Made by a program: the position numbers and the translations under genes
Shown: positions 4,981-57,979 of the stretch, one piece after another
How the letters are laid out: the number at the start of each line of letters is the position of its first letter
How positions within the stretch are numbered: position 1 is the first letter of the stretch
The notes under the pieces: model-generated
What the model was told of the DNA's origin: nothing
Seen by the model: the letters and a program-made list of their open reading frames with translations, nothing else
Database searches by the model: none
Origin: a virus
Reading direction: 5' to 3' (one strand)
IMG/VR virus record: IMGVR_UViG_3300025534_000007
Location: 5,657-69,656 of that record
DNA length: 64,000 nt

Positions 4981-6090
4981 ATGCCTCAGACCACGTTCGA
5001 CATCTGGGATACCGCCCAGCTCACCCACATGGTCGAGCGTCGACTGACGGTCGGCAAGGAGAACACGCCGTCTCTCGGCGATCGCCTCGCCCCGTTCGTC
5101 GACGTTCAGTCGCGGAAGGTCAAGTACCGTGTCGCCGAGGTCGATGCGTTCGGCATCGGCAAGCTCCGGGCGCCCGACGGCAACCCGCAGCTCTACCGCT
5201 CGTCCATGACGTACACGGACCAGCTCGTGGAGCTGGCCCTGCCGGACGAGATGGAGCGCATCGACGAGGACACGATGCTTCGGCTCAACTCCTCGGACGA
5301 GAACATCCGTCGCTCGGCCGGTGCCGACGTCATCACGCGCGGCTCGATCCTCGCTCTGCGCAACTACCGCAAGATCGAGGCCATGCGGTGGGAGATGTTC
5401 CTCACCGGCAAGGTCACGCTCGATTACGACGACTCCAACGTCCAGATCGACTTCGGCCTCCCGGCCGACCACCAGGTCATCCCGACGATCGCCTGGACCA
5501 ACACGCAGGCGGCGAACATCGTCGACCAGGTCCGCGCGTGGCAGAAGAAGGTCGCCGACGACGTCGGCCACCTGGCGCTGCACATCTACATGAACTCCAC
5601 GACCTGGGAGTACGTCTACAACAACAAGGGCATCCGCGATCTGCTGTCGACCTGGGGTCGTTCGCTCATGGTCCCGACGCGCGAGGAGGTCGCGCGCCTG
5701 TTTCACGAGGGCACGACCATCGAGATCTACGACGGCGGCTACCGGCCCGAGGGTGCGGTCGGCCGTGGCGACTCGTCGCTGACCAAGTGGCTGCCGGACG
5801 GCTACGTCCTCATGACGACCGATCACATCATCGACGGTCAGCGGATCGCGGACACGCCGAACGGCCAGGTGCTCGTCTCGACGGGCTACAACAGCGCCGA
5901 GCCGCGCCAGGGCCCGGCGTCTGAGACCATCCTGCACCCGGTCTCCCACAACACGTTCCTCCGCTACGCGCGTGCGGCCATCCCCCGCATGCTCGTCCCC
6001 GAGGCGTTCTTCGTTGCCGACGTCTACCAGGGCGTGGAGGAGCCGCCCGGGTCGGAGGAGGGTGGCAACGGCGGTTCGGGTCAGAGCTGA
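4981..6090 (+). CDS. major capsid protein (lambda gpE-like)
   Basis: 369 aa; position; IEAMRWEMFLTGKV, IDFGLP, IYMNSTTW; Gly/Ser-rich C-terminal extension. Confidence 0.85.
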   Translation: MPQTTFDIWDTAQLTHMVERRLTVGKENTPSLGDRLAPFVDVQSRKVKYRVAEVDAFGIGKLRAPDGNPQLYRSSMTYTDQLVELALPDEMERIDEDTMLRLNSSDENIRRSAGADVITRGSILALRNYRKIEAMRWEMFLTGKVTLDYDDSNVQIDFGLPADHQVIPTIAWTNTQAANIVDQVRAWQKKVADDVGHLALHIYMNSTTWEYVYNNKGIRDLLSTWGRSLMVPTREEVARLFHEGTTIEIYDGGYRPEGAVGRGDSSLTKWLPDGYVLMTTDHIIDGQRIADTPNGQVLVSTGYNSAEPRQGPASETILHPVSHNTFLRYARAAIPRMLVPEAFFVADVYQGVEEPPGSEEGGNGGSGQS

Positions 6091-6100
6091 TTGGTAGTTT

Positions 6101-6114
6101 CCTATCAACATAGG
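6101..6114. promoter_or_regulatory. palindromic motif CCTATCAACATAGG
   Basis: Copy of the genome-wide motif, 15 nt upstream of the ORF at 6130. Confidence 0.65.
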
Positions 6115-6129
6115 TAAGGAGAGCTACCG

Positions 6130-27283: not shown

Positions 27284-27484
27284 ATGAGCGTGTCAGCGAA
27301 CCCCTTCATCCCTGAGATCCTGACTCCAGAGGAGGTCGCAAACCTCCTCCGCATCTCGCGCAAGACCGTCATGACCTACGCCCGCAGGGGCGACATCCCC
27401 AGCTTCAAGGTCGGCAAGTATGTCCGCTTCCGGCGCGAGGACGTTCAACGCTATGTGGATCAGGCGTCTGCTCATCCGTCCTGA
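27284..27484 (+). CDS. xis: excisionase-like helix-turn-helix protein
   Basis: ILTPEEVANLLRISRKTVMTYARRGDIPSFKVGKYVRFRREDV; adjacent to the integrase. Confidence 0.8.
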   Translation: MSVSANPFIPEILTPEEVANLLRISRKTVMTYARRGDIPSFKVGKYVRFRREDVQRYVDQASAHPS

Positions 27485-28800
27485 ATGCGGCTGAGTAGGT
27501 TGGCGTCCTCACGCTTGGGCATCCAGTGGATGTAGACCATCGTCGTCTGGATATCGGCGTGCCCCATCCACTGCTGGATTGTCGTCAGGGGGACGCCTGC
27601 CGCCGCACACATAGTGCCGAATGCATGGCGTAGGCCATGAAACTTCAGCTTCGGCAGCTCAATGCCTTCCTTGGCCTTGGCTTCGATCACCGCATCGCGA
27701 GCCTGGTTGTATTTCCGTTGCACGCAGCGTGGGTGGATGTGCTTGCGCGGGTCGCCGTGGTTGAAGACAAGCCAGGACGGATGCGCGCCTTCAGGAATCA
27801 AGGGCTCCAGGATGTCGCGAGCCTTATCGCTCATCGGCACGGTTCGAGCTACGCCAGACTTCGGGTCATCCTCGCCAACTTGAGGCCCTCCGTAGGTTTT
27901 CGGAGTTCGGATCACGCGACCGTCGAAGTCCAGGTTGCCTACCCGCAGCGCAATCAGCTCACCCAACCGCAGTCCGGTTAGAACACCCAAACGAATGATG
28001 TCGTCGATCGGGTGGTCGTCGCACGTTGCAGCGATCTCTTCGATGACATCCATGTCGTAGACCTTGATCAACTGGCGGCGCCGACGAGATGTTCGGCGCT
28101 CCATCTGATCCATCGGATTGCTGTCGATGTACTTCTTCGCGATTGCGTACTTGAAGATCGTCGACAGAACAGTCCTGTACTTGTCTCTTGTGCGCGTTCT
28201 GTATCCGGCGGATCGAAACTCTTCGTCAAGCTTCGCAATGTCGTCAGCCGTCACCTTGTCGATCGGTTTCGATCCGAGGAGTTCGTGCACGATGGCTGGT
28301 GTCTTCTTCACCCCGTCCCGTCGCGTTGTCGCACCCTTGGTTACGAACATCGACCTATAGCTGATGAAGGACGAGCGCTTCAAGTAGCCGTCTTCTACTT
28401 TGTCTTTGCAGTTCTCGACCCATTCATCGACAACCATTGCGAACGTGACGGTCGGCTTGCCGTTTGCATGGTTGGCGTCTCGCGCCTGATGAGCGCGCGC
28501 TATCTCAGCTTCGCGCTCGTCAATCGCAGCTTCGAGCGCCTTGATGGCGTCAGCATGAGTGAGGAACCCTTCGGGGCAACGATCGCGCCGCTTGGCCCAG
28601 AAGTTCTGCCAGGAGTCGTAGAGGCGCTTCTCGCGCAGCTCTTTGGCGACGAACGGGTTGTTGGCGACCGCTTCCTTCTTCTGGAGCCACGCCGGGCCAA
28701 GCTTCTTCTGTCGCTTGATTCCAGCTGAGTCGCGCCAGTAGCCATACCACTGCGGCCCGCTCTTGCGCTCGACGACGTTGAGGCTTCCGTGCGTGGGCAT
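27472..28800 (-). CDS. int: tyrosine integrase
   Basis: TGLRLGELIAL, KSG, FHGLRHAFGT, WMGHADIQTTMVY: catalytic R-K-H-R-H-Y present. Confidence 0.95.
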   Translation of the reverse strand: MPTHGSLNVVERKSGPQWYGYWRDSAGIKRQKKLGPAWLQKKEAVANNPFVAKELREKRLYDSWQNFWAKRRDRCPEGFLTHADAIKALEAAIDEREAEIARAHQARDANHANGKPTVTFAMVVDEWVENCKDKVEDGYLKRSSFISYRSMFVTKGATTRRDGVKKTPAIVHELLGSKPIDKVTADDIAKLDEEFRSAGYRTRTRDKYRTVLSTIFKYAIAKKYIDSNPMDQMERRTSRRRRQLIKVYDMDVIEEIAATCDDHPIDDIIRLGVLTGLRLGELIALRVGNLDFDGRVIRTPKTYGGPQVGEDDPKSGVARTVPMSDKARDILEPLIPEGAHPSWLVFNHGDPRKHIHPRCVQRKYNQARDAVIEAKAKEGIELPKLKFHGLRHAFGTMCAAAGVPLTTIQQWMGHADIQTTMVYIHWMPKREDANLLSRIQDG

Positions 28801-29050: not shown

Positions 29051-29323
29051 GGCGCGGTTTCCCTCCCAGAACCGAGCAAGCTCATGAGGGACCGAGAAGG
29101 CCGATCAAGGCGCGAATGCTCCAATGGATCGAGAGGGATCGAAAGGGGTCGAAGCGGCCAGAAATGGGACGACGTGTTTCAATCTGGTGCGTCGTCTATG
29201 GTCTGCACTGGCCGTTCGGCACGCTGTGCGCCCGACAAAGCTCTAACATCTGGCCAAATCTGCCGAAACCTTCCAAATTTCGACAGAACCCTTGATTGAC
29301 TCGAAGAGACCTATGTAGTTAGA

Positions 29324-30718
29324 TCAGCCTATGATCCTTAGATCAAGGTGATCGCGCTCATAGGTCCCGCGTCGGACAGCGAACTGGTCTCGGAGCACCG
29401 TCACCTTGTCGTCGTAGAAGTCGTAAACGATCGGGGGTGCCTTTTCCGAGTGGACGCGCTTGACACGACCAACCATCTGGCGAACCGGAAGCGGCTGCCT
29501 CGTCGGCCAGACCAAGAAGAAGCGATCGAGGCGCGGGATGTCGAGCGCCTCTTGGCCGACCGTCGAGATGATGAGGATGTCGCCGTCATTCGCAGCCTCG
29601 ACGATCTTCGCGCGCTCTGCGCCGGACTCATCGCCCGTCATCATCATGACACGGTCCCTAGGCCATCCGTGCGCCATCGCCCATGCTGCCAGCTCATGGG
29701 CATGAGACTTCTGATCGGTGTGGGCGAGGCAGGTGTGACCACGACAGCTGGCCATGATCTTCGCGATCACGGTGTTGCGTCCGCCGTGGACCTTCAACTC
29801 CTTGATCATCTTCTGCCACTGGCGACGCTTGTCGCGGGCGTTCGCCTTCCACGGGAACTCGAACGGAGTTCGCACCGCGATGACCTGCGGACGAACGAGC
29901 ACGCCAGCCTTTTCGAGCATATTGTCCGTCGTTCGGCAGATGATCTCACCTATGATCCCGCGCGACGCGATCGTCATCCACATGAACCGATCGGGCGTCG
30001 CAGACAGGCCGATCCTGTACTTGGCCGGGAAGCGCTGGAACAGCTCACGCACGGTTTCCGCGCTCACTGCGTGGCACTCGTCCAGGATCACGGCCCCGAA
30101 CTGGCACCACCAATTCCGAGCATCGAGATCATCCTTCCGGCGCCACAACGCCTGGCGCAGCGCGACTGTGATGTCGCCTTCGCTCCACGACCCTTCGCCG
30201 ATCAGGCCGACCGTCATCCAGTCGCCGAGCACGCTGCGCAGGCGCTCGATCCACTGTGTGGCGATGTTGATCCGGTCGACGATCACGAGCGTGCGCTGGC
30301 TTGCGCGTGCGATGAAGTGCGCTGCCGTGATCGTCTTGCCCGCGCCCGGTGGCGCCTCGTAGATGCCCTGCTCGCACGCAAGCATACGCTCGATGGCGAC
30401 AGCCTGGTAGTCGCGCGGCCGGTACTCGTCCGAGATCTCGACGTTCAGGTCGATCGGAGCTTCGACGCGCCGGTCGTCCCAGACGGCCTTGTAGCCGCAC
30501 TGCTCAAGTCCCTTCGCGAGCTTGTATGCGAAGCCTCGCGGGATCGTGAGCAGCCCGTCGGTGTCGCGGCGCAGCATCGGGACGAACTGCATCGGGTCGT
30601 CCGGGTTGCGCACGTCGAGCGCGCTCTCCAGCAGTCGCCTCGTTCGATCGTCGAGAAGCCGATCGTCGAGGCGCAGGAAAGCGTCTACGCGGATAGGGAT
30701 CTCGGTGTGATGAGCCAA
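29324..30718 (-). CDS. superfamily II (DExH) helicase
   Basis: PRDYQ, APPGAGKT, ILDECH, GLSATPDR, QMVGRVKR motifs. Confidence 0.9.
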   Translation of the reverse strand: MAHHTEIPIRVDAFLRLDDRLLDDRTRRLLESALDVRNPDDPMQFVPMLRRDTDGLLTIPRGFAYKLAKGLEQCGYKAVWDDRRVEAPIDLNVEISDEYRPRDYQAVAIERMLACEQGIYEAPPGAGKTITAAHFIARASQRTLVIVDRINIATQWIERLRSVLGDWMTVGLIGEGSWSEGDITVALRQALWRRKDDLDARNWWCQFGAVILDECHAVSAETVRELFQRFPAKYRIGLSATPDRFMWMTIASRGIIGEIICRTTDNMLEKAGVLVRPQVIAVRTPFEFPWKANARDKRRQWQKMIKELKVHGGRNTVIAKIMASCRGHTCLAHTDQKSHAHELAAWAMAHGWPRDRVMMMTGDESGAERAKIVEAANDGDILIISTVGQEALDIPRLDRFFLVWPTRQPLPVRQMVGRVKRVHSEKAPPIVYDFYDDKVTVLRDQFAVRRGTYERDHLDLRIIG

Positions 30719-30721
30719 CGC

Positions 30722-30735
30722 CCTGTCAATATAGG
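30722..30735. promoter_or_regulatory. motif copy CCTATATTGACAGG (minus strand), 3 nt before the helicase start
   Basis: Matches the genome-wide palindrome at 13 of 14 consensus positions counting the variable core. Confidence 0.55.
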
Positions 30736-30759
30736 ACCTTTGTCAAGGCCCCAGGAACG

Positions 30760-30793
30760 AGAAACCCCACCGGCCGGGGCCGATGGGGTTTCT
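30760..30793. terminator. hairpin, terminator-like on both strands
   Basis: AGAAACCCCA/TGGGGTTTCT plus CGGCC/GGCCG. Confidence 0.55.
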
Positions 30794-30827
30794 CCGGGCA
30801 TCGGGGTCATGGACCTATGTTGATACC

Positions 30828-31235
30828 CTGGGTGCGCTCATCACTTCGCAGACCCAGTGACGAGGATACCAAGTCCAGAGGTCTGCGAGGTGATCAAAGC
30901 GTAGCAAGCGATGCTGCGCGCACCCGGCTACGGGAGTCGAGCAGACCTCCTCCCTGCGGCACCGGGGTCGCCCGTCAGAGGGGCATCAAGTCTCGCTGCT
31001 CAGGTTGGCAACTGAGACAGCGTGGGTGAGATGGCGATCCCGACAAGGGATAGGGCTCCTTCAGGGCGCCCTGTGTCCAACTGCGGAGCGATCCAGCCAA
31101 GCACGGCTGCGAGGCGAGCGTCAGCGAGCCGAGAAGCCGTGCGCTGGTCAGATGTCAGACGAGATGTCGTCGACATGACCATCTACCAGGGCGAGTTCCG
31201 TTCGCGAGGGCGCTAGCCCGAGCGAACAACTCGCC
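30828..31235 (+). ncRNA. candidate structured non-coding RNA, family unknown
   Basis: At least nine helices in ~400 nt with no convincing ORF; non-Watson-Crick pairs read as G-U or tandem GA on the + strand; TATGTT hexamer within the motif copy at 30814-30827. Confidence 0.55.
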
Positions 31236-31369
31236 AAAGAAACCGATGTCATCCTTGACATCTATGATCATAGGTCAGGAGTAGTGATGAAGAAGAACGC
31301 CCAAATTCAGCGAGAAGCCGTCGGCTATTTGCGCCCTCTTTCCTGCGGCGCCAATCGGAAGGGGACCTC

Positions 31370-31858
31370 GTGAACGCCATGAGCGAGAAGCGATACTCCA
31401 TCACCCAGGCTGCGGCTCTCTTGGACCGATCGGTCAACACGCTGCGGTCCTGGGATCGGAACGTCAACTTCCCCGAGGAGCTGCGTCCGTATCGCGACGA
31501 TCGAGGTCACCGCTACTGGACGCCGGAGCTGATCAAGAAGATCCAGAAGTGGATCGACGAGGCCGGCTTCTACCCCGGCAACTCGATCGCGTACAAGCCG
31601 GATTCCGAGCGGCGCGCCGAGCACCTTCGCCGCATTCGGGAGTCGCGCCGCCGACAGAAGGCGGGCAGCTCCACTGAGATGGAAGAGAAGCTCGACGAGC
31701 TGTACGAACTCGTTGTCGAGGCGTTCGAGAAGCACAACCGCTCTCTGGAGGATGTCGTCGATCTGCTCCCCACCGTCGCCAAGCAGCGCGGCATCCCGAT
31801 GGAGGAAGCGCTCGAAGTCGTCCGCGACGCCGCAAACGACGTCCAGGCCCACGCTTAG
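31370..31858 (+). CDS. MerR-type HTH DNA-binding protein
   Basis: YSITQAAALLDRSVNTLRSWD...RDDRGHRYWT. Confidence 0.8.
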   Translation: MNAMSEKRYSITQAAALLDRSVNTLRSWDRNVNFPEELRPYRDDRGHRYWTPELIKKIQKWIDEAGFYPGNSIAYKPDSERRAEHLRRIRESRRRQKAGSSTEMEEKLDELYELVVEAFEKHNRSLEDVVDLLPTVAKQRGIPMEEALEVVRDAANDVQAHA

Positions 31859-32496: not shown

Positions 32497-33846
32497 ATGG
32501 ATATCGAGCGTGCGTTGCTCAGTCGTTGCATCAACACTGGTGACGTCGAGACTCTGATCTCGCGTGGCGTCGGGCCTCAGCACTTCTCAGACCAGAGCAG
32601 GCCGATCTTTCAGACCATCGTCCGTCACCTGGCGCAGTACGGAGAGCCTCCAAGCCGGGAGGCCGTGCTCATGGAGCACCCGAACTACCGCCTCGACGCT
32701 CCGACCGACAGCGTCGAGTTCCTGCTCGACAAGTTCGTCGAGCACGTCCAGCGACGCGAGGCAGAGCAGGCTGTGATCGACCTGGCTGAGCGTCTGCGCG
32801 ACCCGCACGAGCAGGCGACGCCTGAGCTGCTCTTCATGGAGTACACCGAGCGCGTCGCGCAGATCATCCCCAACAGCAAGATCTCGCGGCTCAGCGATGC
32901 CCCCAAGCGCATCGACCTGTTCCGCAAGCAGCAGGAGCTTGGACGTCTCCCCGGCATCCCCATTGGCATTCCAGAGCTGGATCGCATCATCCTCGGCGTC
33001 CAAGGACACGAGCTGGTAGTCATCAGCGCGCCGTCGAGCTGGGGCAAGTCCACGTTCCTGCAACACATCTGCCTGTCGGCCTACCTCAACGGCGCCAGCA
33101 AGAAGGACACCCCGGCCTTCATCTCGCTGGAGATGGAGGGCGACGCGCTTCTGCGCAAGTTCGACACGATGGCGACCAACTTCTCCTACACGCTCCTGCG
33201 CGCGATGGAACTCGGCGTCGGCGACATCGAGCGCTGGGAGAAGTGGGGCGAGCGCGTCTCCAACGCGCCCAACGATATCATCATCATTGACGACATCGCC
33301 GAGTGCACCGTTGAGCGCGTCTTCGCCGAGGTCCTGCGATGGAAGCCGAACGCCATGTTCGTCGACTACTTCGGCATCATGACTCCCAGGCGCGTCGGCG
33401 GCGATGAGCACGTCTCGATGGCCAACATGGCCAAGGCGCTCAAGCGCATTCCGCGCCGCACCAACATCCCGCTCTTCACGGCTGCGCAGACCAACCGCTC
33501 CGGCTTCAAGGACGGCGTGCGCGCCGACAACGTCGCCGACACGATCGAGATCTTCCGCTCGGCCGACATCATGCTCGGCCTCCAGTGGGACCCCGATGAT
33601 AACCCGGAAGAGATGACCGTCGAGATCATCAAGAACCGCGATGGTCGCAAGGGCTCGGCAACGATCGCCTGGGACCTGGAGCACATGCTCATCGGCGAGA
33701 AGAAGAAGTGGGCCTCGCGCTCTGAGATGCAAGCCATGATCGGCGCCAAGATCGACCAGGTCCCGCAGCCTCAGAAGCCCAACCTCTCCGTCATCAACAA
33801 CCCCTTCGCGCAGGCCAACATCAACCCGGAGGTCGCTGCGGCGTGA
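32497..33846 (+). CDS. dnaB: replicative helicase, DnaB-like
   Basis: APSSWGKS Walker A, ISLEM, FVDY, AAQTNR, ADIMLGL, KNRDG. Confidence 0.9.
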   Translation: MDIERALLSRCINTGDVETLISRGVGPQHFSDQSRPIFQTIVRHLAQYGEPPSREAVLMEHPNYRLDAPTDSVEFLLDKFVEHVQRREAEQAVIDLAERLRDPHEQATPELLFMEYTERVAQIIPNSKISRLSDAPKRIDLFRKQQELGRLPGIPIGIPELDRIILGVQGHELVVISAPSSWGKSTFLQHICLSAYLNGASKKDTPAFISLEMEGDALLRKFDTMATNFSYTLLRAMELGVGDIERWEKWGERVSNAPNDIIIIDDIAECTVERVFAEVLRWKPNAMFVDYFGIMTPRRVGGDEHVSMANMAKALKRIPRRTNIPLFTAAQTNRSGFKDGVRADNVADTIEIFRSADIMLGLQWDPDDNPEEMTVEIIKNRDGRKGSATIAWDLEHMLIGEKKKWASRSEMQAMIGAKIDQVPQPQKPNLSVINNPFAQANINPEVAAA

Positions 33847-34913
33847 GCCGCAGACTCGACCTCTCCCAAGTCGATGTCGTCGAGTTCCTCACCAAGCTCG
33901 GCGTCCAGATCGGCGAGGTCGGCCAGGAAGAAGTCCGCTTCCACTGCCCATACCCGGCGCACGAGTTCGGCGACCGACACCCGAGCGCTTATATCAACCG
34001 GCACACGACCGCATGGACATGCTTCTCATGCGGCGCCTCTGGCAACGCGATCACCTTCCTGGCCGACGTCGCCGACGTCCCGCGATCGACCGCGCGCCGC
34101 TGGATCATCGAGGCATGGATGCCCGACGCCAGCGAGATCGAAGACCTCGCAGACTGGGTACGCAGCTACTTCGCCCAGGGCGATCGCCAGACGGACGAAC
34201 GCAAGCCAATCGCCTACCTCGACGAGCGCTACTACCTCGACCGCGCCGTCGACTGGCACGACCCCGAACCGACCCCGTGGAAGGCGTACATGTTCGGGCG
34301 CGGCTTTACCCCTGACATCCTCTCCTTCTACGAGGTCGGCTACGACCCGATCTCCAACCGGCCCTGCATCACCGTCCGCGACCCGAACGGCAAGCTCGTC
34401 GGCTTCAAGGGCCGAGCGATGGACGACTCGCACCCGAAGTACATGGTGCTCGGCGATACCCCGTCCAGCTTGCAGTACTTCGGCGAGCGCTACGGGTTTG
34501 CGCCATACGACGCCAAGCGCCACGTGTTTGGGCTCGACAAGGCCGAGATCGTCGACGACACGCTCATCGTCATCGAGGGCGAGCTGAACGTCATCGCCGC
34601 GCGCCAGAAGGGACTCCCCAACGTCTGCGGACCATCAGGCTCGACGTTCAGCGACGAACAGGTTGAGCAGATCACCGACGCCTGCTCGCGCGTGGTCTTG
34701 CTCATGGACTCGGACATCGAAGACCCGATGAGCGCCGCGACGGCACGATCCAAGGTGCTCGCAGCCATCGATCAGTTCGGACACTACGTCGATGTCTGGG
34801 TCGTGCCGGAACATGAAGGCGACCCGGCAGAGATGAATGCATCTGATCTGCACGCGCTCGTCGACGAAGCAATGAACTCGTTGACGTACCGATTGAAGAT
34901 GCGTCTTGCATAG
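33843..34913 (+). CDS. dnaG: DNA primase (zinc finger + Toprim)
   Basis: CPYPAH...PSA...WTCFSCG; LVGFKGR; VIEGELN; LLMDSD. Confidence 0.88.
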   Translation: MSRRLDLSQVDVVEFLTKLGVQIGEVGQEEVRFHCPYPAHEFGDRHPSAYINRHTTAWTCFSCGASGNAITFLADVADVPRSTARRWIIEAWMPDASEIEDLADWVRSYFAQGDRQTDERKPIAYLDERYYLDRAVDWHDPEPTPWKAYMFGRGFTPDILSFYEVGYDPISNRPCITVRDPNGKLVGFKGRAMDDSHPKYMVLGDTPSSLQYFGERYGFAPYDAKRHVFGLDKAEIVDDTLIVIEGELNVIAARQKGLPNVCGPSGSTFSDEQVEQITDACSRVVLLMDSDIEDPMSAATARSKVLAAIDQFGHYVDVWVVPEHEGDPAEMNASDLHALVDEAMNSLTYRLKMRLA

Positions 34914-41378: not shown

Positions 41379-41450
41379 GCAAACCCTTCGCAATCTGCGC
41401 GGATCGTGCTATGATGATAGGTCTACACGATCCGCGATTGCGAACAAGGA

Positions 41451-43872: not shown

Positions 43873-43962
43873 CGCACCGGCGCCGCCGAGCTGGCCGTTG
43901 CGCCTCTGGAAGACATGGGCTATGATGATAGGTAGGTAGTCCGACTTCATGGAGGCAACTGC

Positions 43963-53317: not shown

Positions 53318-53409
53318 GTGCCCCCAAGAGCGACCACGCCGCGCGGTGCGTGTGCGGGTGCGGCTGCTTGCTTCGCGCGGCCGAGCACTAGACGCCAGTT
53401 ACTCCGTCG

Positions 53410-53423
53410 CCTATCATCATAGG
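53410..53423. promoter_or_regulatory. palindromic motif CCTATCATCATAGG
   Basis: CCTATCATCATAGGTATG is identical to 1797-1814; ATG at 53425. Confidence 0.7.
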
Positions 53424-53424
53424 T

Positions 53425-53658
53425 ATGACTACGTCGACTGCGGTGGGCCTGCGCAAGTCGTCCTATCGGCAGAAGTGGCGCAAGGGGCTCGCTGATCCCA
53501 AGTCCTTTCCGGCCTTCGGCCAGAGAGTCAAGACCGATCACGAGGTCTTGCAGTGGCTCGAAGGCATCATCTGGTCTGGCGGCATCCTCACCCCCTTCGA
53601 AAAGCGCATGTACCGCGAGCTGTCGGCCAAGCTCGGTCGGCCGGAGATCGCCACATGA
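53425..53658 (+). CDS. small hypothetical protein, probably leaderless
   Basis: ATG 7 nt after TATCAT, no RBS; coupled to the glycosyltransferase. Confidence 0.6.
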   Translation: MTTSTAVGLRKSSYRQKWRKGLADPKSFPAFGQRVKTDHEVLQWLEGIIWSGGILTPFEKRMYRELSAKLGRPEIAT

Positions 53659-57539: not shown

Positions 57540-57979
57540 GCGACCGCACGCCTCAGCAGAAGGGGCGTGGCTGGGAGCCGGAGTTCGCAAAGTCCATCGG
57601 CGCAGCTGTCGTCAAGAACAGTGGCGCCGGGTTCAAGAAGGGCGACGTCATCGGCCCAGAGATCCAGGGTTCGAAGATCATTTGGTCGTTGAAGTGGCGC
57701 GGCGACAACAAGTCTGTCCGCGTCGAGGACGCATGGATGGACGAGATGCTCGCAGCCATCAACGCACCAGGAGGCTACGGAGGCGACATGATCCCGGCCA
57801 TCGCCACCAAGACCCAGGGCTATGAACTGGTCATCATGCGCAAGCAGGACGCGATCGCGCTCATGCATGACGCTGCTGCGCAGTCTCTCGACCCTTCGGG
57901 CCGCGCGACCGGTCGGTACGCTTTGCCCCATCATCATAGGCGACTGCCCGAACTCCTTCGAGGCACGCAAGAGGACTGA
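57536..57979 (+). CDS. PD-(D/E)XK-like, Hjc-type resolvase-like protein
   Basis: QKGRGWEPEFA...NSGAGFKKGDV...WSLK; third catalytic position atypical. Confidence 0.5.
   Translation: MSDRTPQQKGRGWEPEFAKSIGAAVVKNSGAGFKKGDVIGPEIQGSKIIWSLKWRGDNKSVRVEDAWMDEMLAAINAPGGYGGDMIPAIATKTQGYELVIMRKQDAIALMHDAAAQSLDPSGRATGRYALPHHHRRLPELLRGTQED

Follow-up and report, generated by a model that had tools for sequence, protein, structure and literature searches.

A conserved RNA fold ahead of the early genes of uncultured high-GC phages, a possible counterpart of the mycobacteriophage Pleft RNAs

Results

Locus and conserved RNA core

The DNA analysed here is a stretch of 64,000 nucleotides (nt), hereafter the window, taken from the IMG/VR virus record IMGVR_UViG_3300025534_000007 (positions 5,657 to 69,656), a complete record of 84.5 kb with a G+C content of about 64%. 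Behind the structural genes lie an integrase and a UvsW-like helicase, both read leftward, and divergent from the helicase runs an early operon with a short first open reading frame (ORF), a MerR/excisionase-like gene and genes for a DnaB-like helicase, a primase and an SSB-like protein (Table 1). The 650-nt gap between the divergent helicase and the early genes holds the structured RNA region that is the subject of this study. An original prediction, made by a model from the sequence, had described positions 30828-31235 as densely base-paired, strand-biased and non-coding, and had proposed a phage non-coding RNA (ncRNA) of no recognized family.

Within this region, about 180 nt form a conserved RNA fold that consists of the helices P1 to P6 and invariant junction motifs and is present in nine related phages. 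This core was the only part found in the relatives by blastn and nhmmer, with sequence-level conservation limited to positions 30922-31066. The covariance model R1 scored nine distinct loci at 132 to 163 bits, the window at 151 bits. In the R1 alignment 96.5% of the cells were paired and 8 of the 19 pairs had changed on both sides (26 cells); the covariation score was 0.437 compared to 0.160 ± 0.028 in shuffles, none of 500 being as good. When the partners were slid by 1 to 3 columns as a control, pairing fell to 43-64%. RNAalifold recovered P1, P2, P3 and P6, with nine pairs carrying changes on both sides. Compensatory changes, which the original prediction had proposed to look for in homologous intergenic regions, were thus found across the nine loci.

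P4 and P5 were clean hairpins in all nine loci, built from unrelated sequences and held at fixed places between the invariant motifs, and length differences between the loci were confined to hairpin tips. A junction containing AAG separates P3 from P4. Near the 3' end, an element CYGCG may pair with the YGCGG of the first junction to form a pseudoknot. In this candidate pairing 95.6% of the cells pair; its variation is one-sided only (G.U to G-C), with no double-sided change, which leaves the pseudoknot unproven. Candidate tertiary contacts picked out by visual inspection, among them H1 loop with GGGUGAG and P3 loop with CUCCU, did not agree from one sequence to another and were discarded. The window displays the full set of features by which the 'type A' early RNA of UvsW-helicase/MerR/DnaB phages is recognized, a family defined in the present analysis: P1 enclosing P2 together with YGCGGCA, a P3 loop GUNAGAN, P4, GGGUGAG, P5, AGGGCUCCU and ACUGCG.

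Table 1 Genes, RNA elements and repeated motif copies at the early-region locus (positions in the window; aa, amino acids)
Feature	Position	Strand	Remarks
Structural genes	to ~27.2 kb	+	
Tyrosine integrase	27472-28800	-	adjoins the locus
UvsW-like superfamily-2 helicase	29324-30718	-	Pfam ResIII/DEAD/Helicase_C, PHROG 16; divergent from early genes
G+C-rich 17-bp hairpin	30759-30794	-	inverted repeat, 94% complementary; U-rich tail on - strand; just upstream of RNA promoter
Promoter-like motif copy GACCTATGTTGATA	30812-30825	+	exact motif match; -10-like TATGTT 30816-30821
H1, 15-bp hairpin	30840-30894	+	large loop with GAUACCAAG (30865-30873)
H2', 8-bp hairpin	30899-30919	+	relatives: GUCGC..GCGGC-RAG hairpin plus mini-hairpin
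Conserved RNA core, ~180 nt	30921-31092	+	
P1	30923-30927 with 30962-30966	+	CCCGG/CCGGG; encloses P2 and junction
P2 hairpin	30932-30936 with 30950-30954	+	
Invariant junction J	30955-30961	+	UGCGGCA in window, YGCGGCA across loci
P3 hairpin module	30967-30988	+	shared with other actinophage ncRNAs
P3	30970-30973 with 30981-30984	+	4-bp stem GCCC/GGGC, 7-nt loop GUCAGAG; loop GUNAGAG across loci
P4, variable hairpin	30994-31022	+	
Invariant junction J	31024-31034	+	GGGUGAGAUGG in window, GGGUGAGNNGG across loci
P5, variable hairpin	31037-31051	+	
Invariant AGGGCUCCU	31052-31060	+	its CUCCU can pair with AGGGAG further 3' (P6)
P6 region	31056-31072	+	
ACUGCGAGG	31080-31088	+	includes CUGCG 31081-31085
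Four phage-specific hairpins in GCGAG-rich tail	31101-31142, 31146-31189, 31190-31235, 31245-31262	+	
Palindromic motif copy CATCTATGATCATAGGTC	31259-31276	.	followed by AGGAG, then ATG of 28-aa ORF
First early ORF, 28 aa	31287-31373	+	good AGGAG site; overlaps GTG of MerR-like gene by GTGA
MerR/excisionase-like gene	31370-31858	+	
DnaB-like helicase	32497-33846	+	
Primase	33843-34913	+	
SSB-like gene	after primase	+	
Helices in minimum-energy fold	GGGTGC/GCACCC closing 30830-30925; 30840-30854/30880-30894; 30899-30919		second helix 15 bp, third 8 bp
Hairpins in minimum-energy fold	30994-31022, 31037-31051, 31053-31071, 31101-31142, 31146-31189, 31190-31235		
Motif copies	1795-1812, 2348-2361, 6103-6116, 29308-29321, 30724-30737, 30812-30825, 31259-31276, 41406-41423, 43917-43934, 53408-53425, 57925-57942		

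Folding, strand and coding potential

The plus strand of 30828-31235 folded in RNAfold at -216.2 kcal/mol, compared to -169.0 ± 6.4 kcal/mol for 100 dinucleotide shuffles, none of which equalled it (z = -7.3); the minus strand reached -192.1 kcal/mol (z = -4.6). The dense pairing beyond chance and the strand bias claimed in the original prediction are thereby confirmed, and every helix it had listed was present in the sequence and in the minimum-energy structure of the region. Its three-way junction held only in part. The 15-bp and 8-bp stems belong to the conserved RNA; the outer helix GGGTGC/GCACCC overlaps with its 3' strand (30920-30925) the 5' strand of P1 and has no counterpart in the relatives, and for these reasons the RNA probably does not adopt this junction in its native state.

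The core showed the same polarity, its plus strand folding better than the reverse complement in all nine loci; the U.G pairs of P6 and the G.U pairs of the candidate pseudoknot would be mismatches on the minus strand. These observations bear on a reading without any functional RNA, according to which the region is a DNA-level element (a cruciform, a single-strand initiation site or a protein-binding array) or a decayed protein gene. A DNA element would be in line with the better-than-shuffled folding of both strands and with the inverted motif copies (30724-30738 and 30811-30825) that flank the region, yet wobble pairs are allowed on the plus strand only, and helices kept by compensatory change beside invariant loops and junctions are an RNA-type pattern. 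As to a protein gene, the plus-strand ORFs of the region (70, 34, 57 and 64 aa) are not conserved, and those of 70 and 64 aa had no match in Pfam or PHROG. The core crosses ORF borders, no frame is open across it in the window, and its insertions and deletions do not come in threes. A 235-aa gene is called over the homologous RNA region in three relatives (L036:1714-2421, also L037 and L038), which could speak for a decayed gene; the L036 call, however, merely extends the small first early ORF upstream through promoter and hairpin elements in G+C-rich DNA, and the call appears spurious in all three. We consider it extremely improbable that the locus is a DNA element or a gene remnant.

Family searches and expression

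No match was obtained for the whole window against Rfam 15 (4227 models) at the gathering score. At E-values up to 10, positions 30600-31500 gave five chance-level matches of 13-20 bits (small nucleolar RNA, microRNA and leader models). ARAGORN found neither transfer RNA (tRNA) nor transfer-messenger RNA (tmRNA) genes in the window, and family searches of the relatives returned only two tRNAs, elsewhere in the intergenic region. These searches agree with the original prediction, in which no tmRNA, tRNA or riboswitch had been recognized. Its proposal of a phage ncRNA of no recognized family stands, given the covariation in nine loci, the lack of Rfam, tRNA and tmRNA matches, the lack of a conserved ORF, the plus-strand polarity and the promoter-like element upstream. 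By these comparisons the predicted RNA is shown to form a new family, having no Rfam match and occurring, among everything searched, only in nine uncultured-phage loci. Readings as retron, omega-RNA, bridge-RNA or CRISPR were rejected, as the neighbourhood contains no reverse transcriptase, TnpB, IS110 recombinase or repeats; RNA-based immunity of the P4 CI type was rejected on the ground that the RNA is retained in relatives without an integrase.

No RNA runs were listed for positions 30815-31270. The single RNA library that holds the phage contained contigs at 31024-31071, 31211-31516 and 31493-31664, which are of low depth and possibly DNA. The first of these, a 210-nt contig of RNA run X4, joins 29300-29433 in the 3' end of the helicase gene to 31024-31071 in the core on opposite strands and is probably an assembly chimera.

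Relatives of the locus

DNA similarity searches with 30700-31400 gave no match among GenBank phages, and the MerR-like protein had no tblastn match among phages. Scans of IMG/VR with single proteins returned no relatives, and a scan with an alignment of the helicase returned only relatives at 36% identity or less, none carrying the RNA; the helicase alignment had no match in GTDB. In a scan of Joint Genome Institute metagenomes one close locus (L039) was obtained, which has the helicase in the same setting and lacks the core. In a large protein collection, homologues of the helicase at 45-65% identity were present, and their contigs measured about 80-87 kb. The loci of 12 homologues were fetched, resulting in 18 loci, 13 of them distinct, and in 14 distinct loci with the metagenomic one. 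All 14 are syntenic, the helicase facing a series of (small ORF), MerR-like, unknown and DnaB genes across a non-coding gap of 750-1900 nt.

A pattern scan for the core revealed one true additional locus (L060) on a 4.8-kb phage contig binned in a Conexibacter metagenome-assembled genome; six other matches (L058, L059, L061, L062, L063 and L064) were judged to be chance. Among the 150 genomes of the same class that were searched with model R1, the only match was on this contig itself. The core is present in nine distinct loci including the window, all from uncultured high-GC phages.

Several observations concern loci without the core. Two of them carry a tRNA gene on the helicase strand in the same gap between helicase and early genes (L034:3384-3455 and L052:2453-2527); non-coding genes seem to be accommodated in this gap generally. 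A different non-coding block (GGCAAARCUGGUAACU...GAGUC), situated about 505-548 nt from where the helicase starts, is common to L039 and L057 and may be another type of RNA at this locus. A GCGAG-rich segment, ACUGCGAG...GAGCGAAGCGAG, is common to L028, L034 and the window.

Among annotated phage proteins, the best matches of the helicase were UvsW or RNA-DNA helicases at 23-27% identity. Its longest ORF begins with a TTG at 30718, about 6 nt past a minus-strand motif copy; the mRNA may be leaderless, or the real start may lie further inside the ORF. At the position of the 28-aa ORF most relatives have an ORF of 81-105 aa with CxxC...CGGH motifs (zinc-ribbon-like). The MerR-like gene also occurs in syntenic relatives that lack the core (L034, L066), and the partnership of RNA and MerR-type protein suggested in the original prediction found no support.

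Flanking elements and transcription signals

Upstream of a promoter-like element, a G+C-rich hairpin with the look of a minus-strand terminator is present in all loci. In the window this hairpin lies between the inverted motif copies at 30724-30738 and 30811-30825, and matching hairpins with the flank (G)AACGACGAAGACCCC stand in the same place in L031, L032, L033, L035, L036 and L060. It resembles a terminator and would shield the helicase gene from antisense transcription running leftward. The relatives carry a near-perfect extended -10 consensus, TGCTAGGCT, about 15-20 nt before H1, where the window has its TATGTT copy, and the 5' end of the RNA would accordingly be placed at about 30828-30833. 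At the position of H1 every relative has a hairpin of different sequence with the loop motif UA(C/U)C.

The tail at 31101-31262, which has several GCGAG repeats in the window, shows no sequence conservation in the relatives and may contain the 3' end of the RNA or its terminator. A canonical U-tailed terminator was not seen on the plus strand between the RNA and the early promoter. The stretch from the core to the second promoter-like element is unconserved; this element, TATGCTGATAGGC or TGCTATTCTCATAGG, is conserved in all loci 78-204 nt past the core, with a Shine-Dalgarno sequence and then the first early ORF directly behind it, TATGCTGATAGGC being kept before this ORF in related phages. 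The corresponding palindrome at 31259-31276 is the predicted promoter/operator of the early operon.

Both flanking elements are copies of a repeated, partly palindromic motif with a consensus of about CCTATSATSATAGGT, which has 28 matches in the window compared to 4.6 expected. The two copies noted in the original prediction, upstream and downstream of the RNA, proved to be real. Copies are situated mostly in gaps, often directly before a Shine-Dalgarno sequence and start codon, and the half-site TATGNT fits an actinobacterial -10 element. The full palindromes suggest an operator of a dimeric regulator. Positions 31255-31289 (TTGACATC..TCAGGAGTAG..ATG) resemble positions 1187-1218 of phage Peaches (L077) before gene 86 (TTGACATC..TCAGGAGTAG..ATG). 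In Peaches, CTTGACATCGCAC recurs as a repeated site of promoter/operator type, and the resemblance may be due to chance or to a common regulatory grammar.

The P3 hairpin in other actinophages

P3 is unique within the window on both strands, and a BLAST search with 35 nt around it retrieved 169 phage records. About 140 cluster A mycobacteriophages contain the 22-nt P3 module identically close to their genome's right end, in DNA without annotation and on the leftward (early) strand. In all, about 160 cluster A phages have the hairpin in the ORF-free region behind the early promoter. In Peaches an ORF-free stretch of about 600 nt contains the 22-nt string, 70-100 nt downstream of the last Pleft-type promoter; a U-tailed hairpin closes the stretch, and a further promoter and the first gene come next. 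The prophage origin of RedRock is identical to the P3 of the window over 19-20 nt. Alma, Gladiator and other parABS phages retain the hairpin by a compensatory stem GCCG/CGGC with the loop GUYAGAN. Curtobacterium phage Sunfish and Gordonia phage Rahul have it as well, in gaps free of ORFs and in the orientation of the adjoining early genes. A search for P3 as a host element was negative: of the 401 actinobacterial genomes searched, a single one contained the 18-mer, on a 2.5-kb contig, and P3 is consequently a phage rather than a host element.

With filters off, the two best, weak matches of R1 among 48 kb of test loci were the origins of RedRock (13.3 bits) and Alma (8.9 bits), on the strand reported for the origin RNA; Peaches scored 13.3 bits from the P3 hairpin alone. 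With nhmmer an origin profile yielded E-values of 0.2-0.8, again from the hairpin alone. Outside P3, profile and covariance comparisons revealed nothing common to the RNA of the window, the origin RNAs and the Peaches RNA. As P3 is found also in the Pleft-proximal region of integrating cluster A phages and in the gaps of Sunfish and Rahul, it is therefore a general module and not an origin marker. The Pleft ncRNA of phage L5 (L078) bears near its 3' part, at about 515-545 in RNA sense, a T-arm-like string GGGTTCGATTCCCGAC that is a possible tRNA-like element.

Discussion

The RNA as a counterpart of the Pleft RNAs

The reading that we favour, though with confidence that is evenly balanced, is that of an early stand-alone ncRNA which would be the counterpart of the mycobacteriophage Pleft RNAs by position, architecture and a shared hairpin. 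Phages L5, D29 and StarStuff produce an extremely abundant and stable non-coding early transcript of about 500 nt from Pleft; about 90% of these transcripts stop short of the first gene, and their function is given as unknown (Dedrick et al. 2017, PMC5712189). Like the region described here, the Pleft ncRNA is ORF-free, several hundred nt long, situated between an early promoter and the first early gene and co-oriented with the early operon. The window repeats this layout with a promoter-like motif at 30812-30825, no conserved ORF and an early operon starting at 31287. The ncRNA region of Peaches, whose layout is the one reported for L5, D29 and StarStuff (PMC5712189), has the identical 22-nt P3 and ends before a second promoter and the first gene, as does the RNA region of the window. 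Position, two-promoter layout, ORF-free length and the shared module are the reasons for our preference. The systems differ in their neighbours, as the RNA of the window is flanked by the gene of a UvsW-like helicase and, across from it, by MerR-like, DnaB and primase genes, and in the kind of evidence: abundance, stability, processing into species of 100-500 nt and toxicity were demonstrated for the Pleft RNA of L5 and D29 (PMC5712189), and the RNA of the window is known here from sequence.

In such a scheme, the plus strand from about 30828 to 31235-31262 would be the gene of a highly structured ncRNA of about 400 nt, transcribed rightward from its own promoter-like element and placed directly before the early operon with its promoter, ribosome site and first gene. 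The RNA would be made at once on infection, most transcripts ending in the 3' hairpins and a minority reading through into the early genes. The folded RNA would then act in trans, with the invariant single-stranded motifs and the U-turn-type loop of P3 providing the surface that is contacted by a factor shared among Actinobacteria or among their phages.

Several points weigh against this assignment. The alignment comprises nine sequences, and its 3' third (P6 and the pseudoknot) is backed by one-sided changes only. Both RNA ends are predicted positions. The three short, shallow contigs from an RNA library that may contain DNA are no usable proof of expression. Six syntenic relatives (L028, L034, L039, L052, L057 and L066) were without the core even with the Infernal filters off, so that the core is not essential to this phage group. 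There is no homology to a Pleft RNA over the full length: only P3 is shared with Peaches, and the Pleft RNA of L5 has neither P3 nor any similarity to the core, which makes the tie to Pleft one of position plus one module. Finally, as no canonical U-tailed terminator precedes the early promoter, the RNA could equally be a leader.

A cis-acting leader would control read-through into the replication operon, either as a processive antiterminator of the put or nut type, with P3 as a boxB-like site for a protein or for RNA polymerase, or as a ligand-sensing riboswitch. The RNA is co-oriented with the early operon and lies immediately upstream of it, and one of the RNA-library contigs (31211-31516) crosses the early promoter, which is a weak indication. 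Two mutually exclusive pairings are available to the 3' element CUGCGAGG, which is the complement of J2/1 as well as of P2's 3' strand, and the many invariant junction nucleotides are typical of ligand pockets. With its short GC stem and purine-rich loop, P3 presumably resembles the boxB hairpins of the lambda nut sites, and lambda nut and HK022 put are likewise promoter-proximal RNA elements at the head of an early operon. The P3 loop, however, has 7 nt (GUYAGAN) and is not a GNRA-like pentaloop, and the 180-nt fold is without parallel in nut and put. No boxA-like partner and no N-, Q- or LoaP-type gene was recognized among the nearby genes, nor does the RNA match a riboswitch class. In all nine loci a separately conserved promoter-like element and a Shine-Dalgarno sequence stand between the RNA and the first ORF, so that the early genes need not depend on a leader, and the variable, unconserved stretch of 78-204 nt between core and gene also speaks against one. 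On balance we consider a leader function rather unlikely.

The stand-alone RNA must further be compared with the large RNAs and with the RNA-based origins found in phages. GOLLD, ROOL, HEARO/omega RNA, tmRNA and tRNA-like elements are similar in having a few hundred nt and many helices in a phage context; the window differs from GOLLD, ROOL, HEARO/omega RNA and tmRNA in that it had no Rfam 15 or ARAGORN match to them. The RNA-based prophage origins belong to cluster A phages that have parABS and no integrase; they are ORF-free segments of about 600 bp in the genome centre after the tail genes, from which an ncRNA is expressed, and their origin activity was demonstrated (PMC7157519, published in 2020). 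The window agrees with them in its ORF-free segment after the tail genes in the middle of the genome, in the P3 hairpin and in a G+C-rich, opposite-strand, terminator-like hairpin just upstream of the RNA.

A structured replication origin had been the alternative in the original prediction. In an RNA-based version, the transcript, or transcription through the region, would prime or open an origin beside the DnaB, primase and SSB genes, in parallel to ColE1 RNA II, the R-loops at T4 oriF and oriG and the RNA-dependent origins of extrachromosomal cluster A prophages, and the divergent UvsW-like RNA-DNA helicase would resolve the R-loop. The locus between that helicase and the DnaB and primase genes is suited to such a role, and P3 is present in experimentally defined RNA origins, being kept in Alma by compensatory change on the reported origin-RNA strand (PMC7157519). 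The minus-strand terminator-like hairpin stands upstream of the RNA promoter in both systems, so that antisense transcripts could cross the RNA gene. The shared hairpin of about 20 nt nevertheless proves no origin, as it occurs in other early ncRNAs in non-origin contexts, and it is all that the profile and covariance searches found in common; homology to the conserved origin RNA of about 300 nt is absent. The locus adjoins an integrase in place of parABS, no par gene being found among the ten neighbouring ORFs scanned. Positions 30719-31369 contain no iterons or AT-rich unwinding element and show no GC-skew inflection, and six relatives with the same replication genes are without the core. 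An origin function of the RNA appears unlikely, although it is the strongest competitor of the Pleft-type reading.

Modularity of early actinophage RNAs

The early ncRNA of the Pleft type that we favour leaves room for a wider role of its shared hairpin. P3 (UCGCCS-GUYAGAN-SGGCA) might be a portable module of about 20 nt which phages of Mycobacterium, Gordonia, Curtobacterium and uncultured hosts have inserted into unrelated early ncRNAs, a notion that we hold to be quite unlikely. The suggestion that this module recruits one factor which couples early transcription to RNA-primed initiation of phage replication is just as doubtful. If this were true, the RNA of the window would be a lytic origin RNA working with the divergent UvsW-like helicase, and the mycobacteriophage Pleft RNAs would have the same role.

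We know of no mechanism and no described conserved structure for the abundant early ncRNAs and the RNA-only plasmid origins of cluster A mycobacteriophages. Actinophages were already known to have RNA origins and structured ncRNAs of the early region; the family described here is new, and its fold can be read from covariation. With it, a distant lineage of uncultured phages is seen to have an RNA at the corresponding position, and one near-identical hairpin ties this RNA to both mycobacteriophage systems. The recurrence of P3 across phages of several host genera is not mentioned in the parts of the two reports drawn on here (PMC5712189 and PMC7157519). In the cultivable phages Peaches, RedRock and Alma, the GUYAGAN loop and its stem provide a handle for mutation. 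If P3 marks an origin or an antitermination site, it would assist in annotating the origins and the early regulatory sites of actinophages, of which thousands have been sequenced. Our findings suggest that structured ncRNAs of the early region belong to actinobacteriophage genomes in general, as modular elements, and are not the peculiarity of one cluster.

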